DNA from: Candidatus Nomurabacteria bacterium GW2011_GWD2_36_14
Lineage (GTDB): Bacteria > Patescibacteriota > Minisyncoccia > Phycocordibacterales > UBA9973
Direction of reading: 5' to 3'
Assembly: GCA_000991405.1 (NCBI GenBank)
Contig: LBRL01000001.1
Location: forward strand, 625,841 to 689,840
Length of the DNA: 64,000 bases
The notes beneath the pieces were generated by a model that had not been told where the DNA came from, did no database searches, and worked only from the letters and a program-made list of their open reading frames with translations. Shown piece after piece: positions 1 through 2,989 of this stretch. Made by a program: the position numbers and the translations under genes. Within the stretch, counting starts at the first letter, position 1. Every line of letters begins with the position of its first letter.

Positions 1-2
1 TG

Positions 3-161
3 ATTTTACGAGTACCAACAGAATTAAATGAGGAACAAATCAAAGAATTTCAACAGCTATATTTTGAGCGATTTGGAGAAGAAATTTCTAGAGATGAAGC
101 AATCGAAGAAGGATTGAGCTTAATTCGATTAGTAGCTATTGTTATTGATAAAAGTATATGA
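3..161 (+). CDS. Small helical protein upstream of the recombinase (5' end at window edge); candidate accessory/directionality factor
   Basis: Frame 3 reads ILRVPTELNEEQIKEFQQLYFERFGEEISRDEAIEEGLSLIRLVAIVIDKSI*; not in the ORF track because it is truncated. Confidence 0.65.
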   Translation: MLRVPTELNEEQIKEFQQLYFERFGEEISRDEAIEEGLSLIRLVAIVIDKSI

Positions 162-165
162 AGTA

Positions 166-174
166 TGATAAAAT
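166..174 (+). promoter_or_regulatory. Extended -10 promoter (TGaTAAAAT) for the recombinase leader
   Basis: TGnTAAAAT ends 6 nt before the structured leader starting at 181. Confidence 0.45.
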
Positions 175-279
175 AACAACGGCACACAAGATTTATAATT
201 TAAGCCCAGAAAGGGGTAACAGAAAATTTTGTGTGCCAAAACGCTTAAATTATTCTGTTATCCCTTTCTGGTTTCTGCC

Positions 280-1878
280 ATGAGAAATATTGATTTCAAA
301 TATTTTCTCTATGCAAGAAAATCTAGTGAGTCGGAGGATCGCCAAATGGCCTCCATCGAGGATCAGATTGCAGAAGCTAAGAAATTAGCTGAAAAATATA
401 ACATCAATGTAGTTGATGTTATAGAAGAATCAAAATCTGCAAAAGAGCCAGGTCGAGTTGGATTTAATTCGATGCTTAAACGAATTCATAAAGGAGAAGC
501 CCAAGGAATACTTACTTGGAAGCTCAATCGTTTAGCCAGAAATCCAATAGATGGAGGACAAATAAGTTGGATGCTCCAACAGAATATCATCAAACATATT
601 CAGACCTTTGAAAGAGATTATAATCCTACAGACAATGTCTTGCTCATGCAAGTTGAATTTGGTATGGCTAATCAATACGTCAAAGATTTAAGCCTTGATG
701 TTAAAAGAGGAATGCGTCAAAAAGCTGAAAGAGGTTGGTATCCGATACCTCAATTGCCAATTGGATACATGCATAATCCTCTATTCACTCCCGGGGTTGA
801 AAAAGAAATAATTCCAGATGAAGAAAGATTTTTCATTCTTAAAAAGCTATGGAAATTACTTTTAACTGGTAATTATACTGTTGCTGATTTGAGAAGAAAA
901 GGAAATGCTTTGGGGTTGAAAACTAAAGGGAATAAACAATGTCCTCAATCAACTTATTACTACATATTCACTAATGAATTTTATTCCGGTTATTTTTACT
1001 GGCCAAATAAAGATGGTGGGTTAATTTGCCACAGAGGAAAGCATTTGACTATGATTAGCCCTATAGAGTTTCAAAAGGCTCAAATTATACTTAAAGGAGC
1101 AATTCACTCAATAGGGAAAGAGAGAAAATATGATTTTCCATATAGAGGAATTATTAAATGTGGTGAATGTGGATGTATGGTCACACCAGATCATAAATTG
1201 CAGGCTATTTGTACAAATTGCAAGTTCAAATATTCAGTAAAAAATATGGGGAATTGCCCAAGATGTGATACCCCATTCTCGGAAATGAAAAATCCAAGTA
1301 TAATCGACATCCTTTATTATCACTGTTCTAAAAGCAAGGGAAAATGCTCTCAGGGGTCAATTACAAGAGATGAGATTGACTCTGTAATTGAAAAATCAAT
1401 AGGAGAGATATCAATCTCTAAGGATTACTATCAGTGGTCAATGAATAGATTGAAGGATGGTAATAATAAGGTTGATATACAGGAGGATGAAAAGATAATA
1501 AAGGGACTACTGAAAAAGAAAACTGAACTTGGTAATCGTCTTTTTGAATTAGTAAATCTTCTGGCTGATTGTAAAATCAATTCCGAACAATTCAATTTAT
1601 CTACCTCAAAAACTCAAAAGGAAATATTCTCTATTGAATATGAGATTGAGGAAATTAGTAATAGAAATATCAGGTGGTTCGAGGAAACTAAAAAGGATTA
1701 TAATCTTATGTTGAACGTTCTTGAAAAATTCAAAAATGGTGGAGATCTGGTTAAAACTGAGATAGCTAGGGAGCTATCTTCGAACCTAATTTTAATGGAC
1801 AAAAAGCTTTATTTCACAATGAAAAAATCGTTTTTTGATATTAAGAAGAACCTTACTCTTTGCACCGCAAAAAATTAA
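280..1878 (+). CDS. Large serine recombinase (resolvase + recombinase + Zn-ribbon domains)
   Basis: YARKSSE catalytic motif, SAKEPGR, RLARN, CGECG and YYHC zinc motifs, coiled coil; ATG 280 preferred over TTG 229. Confidence 0.93.
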   Translation: MRNIDFKYFLYARKSSESEDRQMASIEDQIAEAKKLAEKYNINVVDVIEESKSAKEPGRVGFNSMLKRIHKGEAQGILTWKLNRLARNPIDGGQISWMLQQNIIKHIQTFERDYNPTDNVLLMQVEFGMANQYVKDLSLDVKRGMRQKAERGWYPIPQLPIGYMHNPLFTPGVEKEIIPDEERFFILKKLWKLLLTGNYTVADLRRKGNALGLKTKGNKQCPQSTYYYIFTNEFYSGYFYWPNKDGGLICHRGKHLTMISPIEFQKAQIILKGAIHSIGKERKYDFPYRGIIKCGECGCMVTPDHKLQAICTNCKFKYSVKNMGNCPRCDTPFSEMKNPSIIDILYYHCSKSKGKCSQGSITRDEIDSVIEKSIGEISISKDYYQWSMNRLKDGNNKVDIQEDEKIIKGLLKKKTELGNRLFELVNLLADCKINSEQFNLSTSKTQKEIFSIEYEIEEISNRNIRWFEETKKDYNLMLNVLEKFKNGGDLVKTEIARELSSNLILMDKKLYFTMKKSFFDIKKNLTLCTAKN

Positions 1879-1948
1879 CCTTCGAACCTACTTTTACCAT
1901 TAAAAAATAAGGGTAAAATGTAGTTTCTGGGCGAATATTCTAATCGTG

Positions 1949-2021
1949 TCCTCTCGGTAGGAATCGAACCTACGACCATCTCCTTAAAAGGGAGCTGCTC
2001 TACCAACTGAGCTACGAGAGG
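1949..2021 (-). tRNA. tRNA-Lys(TTT)
   Basis: Acceptor CCTCTCG/CGAGAGG, anticodon loop CTTTTAA, GGTTCGATTCC T-arm. Confidence 0.95.
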
Positions 2022-2116
2022 GGGGGGTTAAAAGGATACTTAACAAAAAGTACCATATTTAAGGGATAAAATCAATAGAATTCTAATGAGGACTATGACT
2101 ATGATATAATCAAAAT

Positions 2117-2989
2117 ATGAGTAACATACCAACAAAAAAATTAAATAATGGTTTTGAAATGCCAGTTTTAGGTTTTGGAACTTGGGAGATGGGAGGTAGA
2201 TTTGAAAGAGAGGATAATTACGATGAAAGTAATGACATACAAGCCATTAAGAAAACCATTGAACTAGGTGGTTCTCGTTTTGATACGGCTGAAATGTATG
2301 CCAAAGGTTACAGTGAAGAAATATTAGGCAAGGCACTTAATGAATATGATAGATCTAAGCTATTTATAACATCAAAAGTTACTGCTACTAATTTGGGATA
2401 TGATAGTGTTATATCATCTTGTAAGGCAAGTTTAGCTCGTCTCCAGATGGATTATTTAGATTTATATCTTATCCATGCACCAAATCCAGATATACCAATT
2501 GAAGAAACAATGCGAGCTTTTGATTATCTCAAAGATCAAGGACTGATTAAAAACATAGGTGTTTGCAACTTTAATGTTGAACGACTAATGGAAGCTCAAA
2601 ATCAAACTAAAAATAAAATTGTTTTGAACCAAGTTCATTATAATTTAATATTTAGAGAACCTATTAAAAAGGGAGTTGTTGAATATTGTCAAAATAATGA
2701 TATTTTTATTGAAGCATGGAGACCAGTTCAACAAGGAAGTTTGGCTAAAAAGGGGATTGATATTGTCGATAAATTGTGTGAGAAATATAATAAAACACCA
2801 GCCCAGATTGCCATTAACTGGCTTGTATCACAGAAGAATGTTATTACTCTGGTTAAAGCTAGTAATATAAAACACTTAGAAGAAGATATTGGTGCTGTTG
2901 GTTGGAGTATGTCCGACGAAGATGTTCTATTATTAACAAATAATTATCCTATACAGCTTGATAGGAGTAACGCTGTTCAACTTAAATAA
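2117..2989 (+). CDS. Aldo/keto reductase
   Basis: LGFGTW, DTAEMY, LDLYLIHAP, IGVCNF motifs. Confidence 0.92.
   Translation: MSNIPTKKLNNGFEMPVLGFGTWEMGGRFEREDNYDESNDIQAIKKTIELGGSRFDTAEMYAKGYSEEILGKALNEYDRSKLFITSKVTATNLGYDSVISSCKASLARLQMDYLDLYLIHAPNPDIPIEETMRAFDYLKDQGLIKNIGVCNFNVERLMEAQNQTKNKIVLNQVHYNLIFREPIKKGVVEYCQNNDIFIEAWRPVQQGSLAKKGIDIVDKLCEKYNKTPAQIAINWLVSQKNVITLVKASNIKHLEEDIGAVGWSMSDEDVLLLTNNYPIQLDRSNAVQLK

Follow-up and report, generated by a model that had tools for sequence, protein, structure and literature searches.

Genes and features at the locus

The window, by which we mean the whole 64,000-nt stretch of the Candidatus Nomurabacteria contig that was analyzed, opens with the end of a small open reading frame (ORF), followed by a promoter-like site, a leader, the gene of a large serine recombinase (LSR), and a conserved element end that abuts a tRNA gene. 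The features are listed below in order.

1..161, plus strand: 3' part of a small ORF of 53 aa, whose start codon lies one base upstream of position 1; common in these elements, without a Pfam or NCBIfam family
145..174, plus strand: sigma70-type promoter-like site, with -35 box TTGATA (145-150), TG (166-167), and -10 box TAAAAT (169-174); predicted start near 181
181..194, plus strand: segment A, 5' strand of early helix A, beginning at the predicted +1
195..205, plus strand: segment B, 5' strand of early helix B, pairing with 243-253
204..217, plus strand: predicted local hairpin E (204-207 with 214-217), covering the G-tract of C once made
206..224, plus strand: segment C, 5' strand of the terminator-like helix, with conserved A-tract, GG, and wobble position
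224..237, plus strand: segment A', whose 5' part (225-229) pairs alternatively with 247-251 (helix F, late fold)
243..253, plus strand: segment B', pairing with B
253..276, plus strand: segment C' (253-271) including the U-run and ending 8 nt short of the ATG, then TTTCT; termination predicted in this zone
280..1878, plus strand: large serine recombinase, 532 aa, with Resolvase, Recombinase, and weak Zn ribbon domains
1881..1948, plus strand: conserved element end with a TTCGAAC motif and an inverted repeat (1892-1918), as seen in the alignment of ends; putative junction near 1948
1948..2021, minus strand: tRNA-Lys(UUU), inferred integration target

Read on the plus strand, the leader contains three pairings: helix A joins 181-194 to 224-237 (14 bp, 13 Watson-Crick and one G-U), helix B joins 195-205 to 243-253 (11 bp, all Watson-Crick), and helix C joins 206-224 to 253-271 (19 bp, 18 Watson-Crick and one G-U). 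With segments in the order A-B-C-A'-B'-C' over 91 bases, the three helices cross and are not nested, and positions 224 and 253 are each used by two of them. These pairings, including the perfect helix B, had been described in the initial annotation and are exact, as is the 8-nt gap between the end of C' at 271 and the recombinase ATG at 280. The crossing triple amounts to 42 Watson-Crick pairs, a number reached by none of 1,500 dinucleotide shuffles (maximum, 22), and a triple of this kind occurs only once among 2,407 windows covering 144 kb of the same contig. Each crossing helix reaches the length of at least one turn that a knotted RNA calls for, with medians of 13 bp for A and 17 bp for C. 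An Rfam 15 search of window positions 1 to 2200 returned only a tRNA at the gathering threshold, the leader matches lying far below threshold (E 0.14 or worse), and the same search at six homologous loci gave tRNAs only and no family for the leader.

A conserved family of leaders

Comparative analysis identifies the leader as a member of a conserved RNA family with no Rfam match. We observe a related leader at 3 of 29 LSR loci (60 relatives) and, in a GTDB scan, upstream of 32 among the best 80 LSR loci, the remaining 48 having none directly upstream. The nearest homologues of the window recombinase (64 to 72% protein identity) belong to Bacteroidota elements and one Patescibacteria element, and these nearest elements share their upstream genes with the window element, namely, a RuvC-like gene, a helix-turn-helix (HTH) gene, a phage-O-like replication protein gene, and the small ORF. 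A separate set of recombinases (L016, L020-L024, L026, L027, and L029) has a different conserved upstream motif (GCATAG..TTAGCA or GGACGC..GCGTCAT).

The family has two layouts. Type I, that of the window, has the order A-B-C-A'-B'-C' (22 members studied); type II consists of a long hairpin, A-B-D, whose loop, about 22 nt long, contains C. In type II, C' follows A' immediately, and the hosts, where named, are mostly Patescibacteria. In both types, A stands at a fixed distance from the -10 box, and C carries the A-tract, the GG, and the wobble position. Helix C is paired in 97.9% of cells across 18 type I sequences, with double changes in 7 of its 16 pairs; its wobble is G-U in 15 of the 18, and A-C takes the place of the G-U at five metagenome loci and at L148. 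Since MAFFT misregisters A and B (62 to 66% paired), these helices were assessed per sequence and by mutual information. All 20 type I members tested have helix A, with 20 distinct arms, and 19 of the 20 have helix B; cognate duplexes are more stable than non-cognate ones for both A (-18.5 versus -5.4 kcal/mol) and B (-6.1 versus -1.4 kcal/mol). Relatedness among the sequences makes every shuffle p-value in this analysis an overstatement. Furthermore, mutual information across 98 type II sequences, with an alignment model fitted to C alone, recovers A (z 13 to 16), D, and C. The initial annotation had staked its reading on the crossing pairings being conserved in homologous leaders; they are, and covariation of all three helices is seen by alignment, cognate duplexes, and mutual information.

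The site TTGATA-18-TAAAAT with TG at 166-167 is among the top-scoring promoter-like sites, in a scan that returned 14 sites in 2.2 kb against 8.8 expected, hence the window match is weak taken alone. Across the family, the distance from the -10 box to helix A is 6 nt for 74 of 92 type II members, the TG extension is found in 49, and type I members show the same spacing. The extended -10 at 166-174 proposed in the initial annotation gains a family-wide fixed spacing, and the start near 181 is kept as a prediction. Reads from three RNA runs of the same sample did not map to the leader, a result that speaks neither for nor against its transcription. With respect to strand, the two non-Watson-Crick pairs of the window leader are G-U on the plus strand and would read A-C on the minus strand. 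When all internal mismatches of 34 leaders are counted alike, we find 63 G-U, 8 A-C, and 17 others, which bears out the earlier argument that G-U compatibility points to RNA. Together with the fixed -10 spacing, this ratio indicates that the leader is used as a sense-strand RNA; it also rules out a double-stranded DNA site.

Two mutually exclusive folds

Comparative and folding tests indicate that the leader can adopt two folds, exclusive of each other and both under selection. The early fold comprises A-A', B-B', and the local hairpin E, whereas the late fold comprises C-C' extended by helix F and leaves the 5' half (A-B) unpaired. Among 64 non-redundant leaders of type II, pairing between the UUGGG of A' and the five nucleotides 3' of C is found, position by position, in 63/64, 64/64, 59/64, 61/64, and 45/58; AU-GC and CG-UA swaps occur, and the signal is absent one base off register. 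The same UUGGG bases pair with A in the type II early fold. In type I, C is extended inward at the expense of A and B, by 4.7 bp in cognate against 3.7 bp in non-cognate combinations (n = 19, P = 0.0007, with L014 left out for a misplaced anchor; n = 13, P = 0.0002 without six close kin). In addition, a conserved CC before C pairs locally with C's own G-tract, and among 94 type II members, 79 have an early fold in which at least three G of C are locally paired.

When the window leader is folded step by step, A plus E is obtained up to nucleotide 260 (-23.8 kcal/mol) and C plus F at 271 (-36.4 kcal/mol). The late fold is the more stable one in all 22 type I leaders, by 3 to 14 kcal/mol. Of the 94 type II leaders, only 21 favor it among the nested folds, and in the remaining 73 it is the less stable; these energies are nested and ignore crossing helices and pseudoknots, so the early fold is understated throughout. 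Full simultaneous pairing of all helices is sterically doubtful, chiefly in type II, where a 16-bp helix would have to form within a loop of about 22 nt.

Genes behind the leader

A protein-free motif scan of metagenomes returned at least 119 loci (about 230 are estimated for one narrow motif). An LSR begins less than 100 nt downstream in 87 of these and 100 to 900 nt downstream in 14, mostly with a small ORF in between; 7 end at a contig edge and 11 have no LSR, which places an LSR behind the leader at 101 of the 112 loci with downstream sequence. Among the 11 loci without an LSR, the crossing helix is found in L264 only, where a complete leader (L264:417-680) precedes a superinfection immunity gene (PF14373) and not a recombinase. 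A type II model gave 6 sites in 5 genomes from a first draw of 151, all preceding LSRs, and 7 sites in 7 genomes from a second draw of 151, where 5 preceded an LSR (one of them identical to a training sequence), one a small ORF plus LSR, and one a cas12a gene within a complete type V-A locus.

We find the leader at 2 of 12 cas12a 5' regions scored (11 of 12 genomes plus L177). It stands before a complete cas12a-cas4-cas1-cas2-array locus (L162/L177; G279:C27), before an intact-looking cas12a (L303), and before a broken cas12a (L321/L325), upstream of cas4 in L321. All three cas12a leaders keep helix A, two of the three carry a long internal anti-C segment, and their C' ends lie 42, 43, and 121 nt from the cas12a start codon. 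Leaders that are 89 to 90% identical also precede LSRs that are only 23 to 24% identical (first 75 aa). To judge from this distribution, the leader is a portable module common to several recombinase subfamilies and a cas12a group.

Of 97 leader-bearing recombinase loci, 45 have the small upstream ORF nearby, as do 19 of 67 leaderless ones; it is absent near the other 52 leaders, and an obligatory regulator encoded there was rejected. In the Atlas, it matched only hypothetical clusters, under 0.9. A second recombinase of the same genome, at tRNA-Asn (G000:C1:260466-261881), has no such leader. Scans of viral sequences with the recombinase protein gave no match, a viral motif scan gave 38 loci with two real leaders (L144 and L148), and searches of plasmid and phage collections turned up nothing beyond distant recombinases or a chance match of 26 nt. 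Four viral contigs (L118, L262, L267, and L270) carry a conserved C-like hairpin with the same G-U core and no crossing helix, before an unrelated ORF.

Transcription attenuation and its alternatives

We consider it likely, with about even confidence, that the leader is a portable cis-acting transcription attenuator that would keep the recombinase scarce. A' and B' emerge ahead of C', so the early fold should form first and trap C at both ends. Pairing of C with C' over 16 to 19 bp would then require displacement of A and B, with F as the invading stretch, since C' can wind around a strand held at both ends only by strand displacement, and the C-C' hairpin would be delayed. Should C-C' form while the polymerase is still on the U-tract, an RNA of 90 to 125 nt would be released; should it form too late, transcription would read through into the recombinase gene. 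Expression would thus be set by a race between folds and not by a guide function and, by extension, Cas12a levels would also be kept low where the leader precedes cas12a.

Attenuation is favored by the terminator-like character of C-C' with its U-run, by the cas12a leaders that end 42 to 121 nt upstream of the gene, and by the two of these with an anti-C segment. The weak Bacteroidota matches of the type I model are plain hairpins with A-tract, GC-stem, and U-tract at gene ends (three inspected). At least five U follow within 8 nt of the last CC in 76 of 94 type II members (three U being imposed by the search pattern), and the other 18 have an imperfect U-tract of at most four U. A terminator-like hairpin with a U-tract lies between the promoter and the first gene, with an unusually long loop and some imperfect U-tracts, and an alternative structure that excludes this hairpin is seen in both comparative and folding tests. 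A simple terminator scan made no call at the window C-C' site, owing to the long loop. In type II, where the late fold is the more stable in so few leaders, C would be freed only by a trigger or through a partial pseudoknot. The initial annotation had proposed a mutually exclusive RNA switch controlling integrase expression; conservation, covariation, G-U bias, promoter spacing, and the two exclusive folds all speak for the switch, and from them we infer the regulation.

The attenuator has a counterpart at the level of translation, where the early fold would briefly leave the start region open until C-C' blocks ribosome loading. The position of C' in the window, and the gap of no more than 12 nt from C' to the ATG that 52 of 91 type II members show, fit such translational control equally well, and the greater stability of the late fold in every type I leader suits it; the leader of the MS2 maturation gene, as outlined in PMC4615214, offers a precedent. 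We nevertheless hold this kinetic switch to be unlikely, given that the gap between C' and ATG exceeds 20 nt in 8 of the 91 members, that the cas12a leaders end too far from the start codon to cover the ribosome site, and that the late fold is the less stable one in most type II members.

Somewhat less likely again is a compound reading in which the topological timer also acts in trans: terminated RNAs would flip nascent copies of the same sequence group to the terminating fold, an RNA-only, self-reinforcing immunity would cap both recombinase and Cas12a, and the intermediate, whose two crossing helices exceed one turn, could represent a threaded or knotted RNA of natural origin. A putative trans-acting immunity RNA, in which the released late-fold RNA would bind nascent A'-B' through its free A-B, block the early fold, and force termination, strikes us as slightly more doubtful still. 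We give the same low credence to its consequence, that elements belonging to one sequence group, whether resident or incoming, would be silenced as by the CI RNA of phage P4. Sequence varies freely in A, B, and D, which are orthogonal from one element to another, as the cognate and non-cognate duplex energies of A illustrate, whereas C stays constant; the late fold leaves the 5' half without a partner; such an RNA could be the missing trigger of type II; L264 places a leader before a superinfection immunity gene; and P4, in the account of PMC4825925, sets a precedent. However, variation with covariation is also expected from drift under cis constraint, and intramolecular A-A' pairing should far outpace pairing in trans.

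Element ends and a possible guide function

A compact, possibly knotted RNA that binds the recombinase and sets its target or direction would explain the tight linkage seen in the metagenomes (101 of 112), and the conserved wobble (G-U, or A-C at the six loci mentioned above), the U6 run, and a bulge could form a protein site. The longest exact match between leader and attachment region, however, is no better in cognate than in non-cognate pairs (7.66 versus 7.45, n = 29, P = 0.16; in a second test 8.05 versus 7.95, n = 37, P = 0.28), both tests covering the LSR-side end only and 9 of the 29 windows of the first beginning at the tRNA T-loop. Leaders track neither the target tRNA, with similar leaders found in elements at many different tRNAs, nor the protein subfamily, with RNA identity at a median of 0.66 at every protein identity below 0.6 (Spearman's r = 0.21). 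We find neither the loop matches to target and donor, at the recombinase-side end, nor the co-evolution with the protein that mark bridge and seek RNAs. With 48 of 80 related recombinases lacking a leader directly upstream, near-identical leaders preceding divergent LSRs, and a leader before cas12a, the RNA or single-stranded DNA cofactor suggested in the initial annotation is disfavored, and we regard a cofactor or guide as improbable.

Some individual matches were discarded. The cognate versus non-cognate tests bore out neither the 9-nt match linking 1924-1933 to the B-C junction nor the apparent matches of B with anticodon loops of tRNAs. The L008 loop agrees at 13/14 positions with what had been taken for an attP arm; this match was set aside, the arm being the end of an insertion in tRNA-Asn, with what we take to be a group I intron-like motif at that end. 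Nine loci (L005, L011, L014, L070, L074, L076, L080, L093, and L111) have tRNA-Asn-like genes beside recombinases, with an anticodon-loop insertion ending near GATATAGTCC that presumably resembles a group I intron.

At the recombinase end of the element, the tRNA T-loop-like TCGAAC occurs three times (1779-1786, 1881-1887, and 1964-1970); it is also conserved among relatives. Next comes, in the Bacteroidota ones, a non-tRNA arm, present at times as tandem copies (L033 and L035); by eye, TCGAAC is placed 5 nt farther out from the junction in this arm than it is in the tRNA arm. A motif offset between attP and attB is an ordinary feature of protein recognition, and the 5-nt offset fits such recognition. 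No duplicated piece of tRNA-Lys that would mark the far element end was found in the genome. The window recombinase ends 14 codons before the stop of its relative in L034, and the conserved inverted repeat at 1892-1918 lies in that tail (1876-1923). Upstream of the window, the RuvC-like, HTH, and phage-O-like genes common to Bacteroidota elements are found at L032:12229-13736, and L032:10191-12092 encodes a second, unrelated recombinase of 633 aa. The upstream genes shared with Bacteroidota elements suggest that this element has been transferred between phyla.

A leader that responds to a metabolite, or that RNase III shifts or processes at its long C helix, is highly improbable, since despite a conserved unpaired-looking U6 run, the fixed wobble, and a C helix of median 17 bp, the alternative pairings explain most conserved bases, no Rfam riboswitch matched, and the downstream genes are non-metabolic.

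Relation to known systems and significance

Like trp-type attenuators as presented in PMC4615214, the leader gives the terminator-hairpin strand alternative partners that are made earlier and has a U-tract before the first gene; it differs in having no leader peptide, a terminator loop of 28 to 60 nt, and no known signal, and in that C is trapped by helices crossing it and not merely by a competing hairpin. The MS2 leader, in the treatment of PMC4615214, likewise has a transient early fold that delays a stable late fold near the start codon, but the present leader lacks pairing to a Shine-Dalgarno sequence, lies 1 to 121 nt from the ATG, belongs to a DNA mobile element, and is anchored to a promoter. 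With the seqA/CI RNA/seqC region of P4, as described in PMC4825925, it has in common an untranslated mobile-element leader, several mutually complementary segments, and premature termination (predicted here). It differs from P4 in having no sequence or Rfam match and in preceding a recombinase or cas12a, where P4 controls replication genes. The IS110 bridge RNA and the IS1111 seekRNA are non-coding RNAs made from a promoter directly before the recombinase gene. Unlike these, the leader accompanies a serine and not a DEDD recombinase, its variable parts are paired internally, and it has no target or donor match at the recombinase-side end. Finally, synthetic X-Y-X'-Y' knots, as reported in PMC13725558, also have duplexes that cross and span one turn or more (12 bp in the knots; 14, 11, and 19 bp in the leader), whereas the leader is natural and has a covarying, exclusive alternative fold; natural RNA knots are termed extremely rare in the same account.

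In a search of openly available literature, over titles and abstract openings, we found no prior description of such a leader, and in the literature searched we found none of the control of LSRs in Patescibacteria or Bacteroidota elements. The leader is real, conserved, and undescribed in the sources searched. It constitutes a common, portable RNA module whose two exclusive folds have comparative support and for which no ligand is known, and it offers a natural test of whether RNA topology, in the form of crossing helices of more than one turn, can time termination. The family also supplies candidates for the question of natural RNA knots, and the leader may matter when these recombinases and nucleases are expressed from their native loci.
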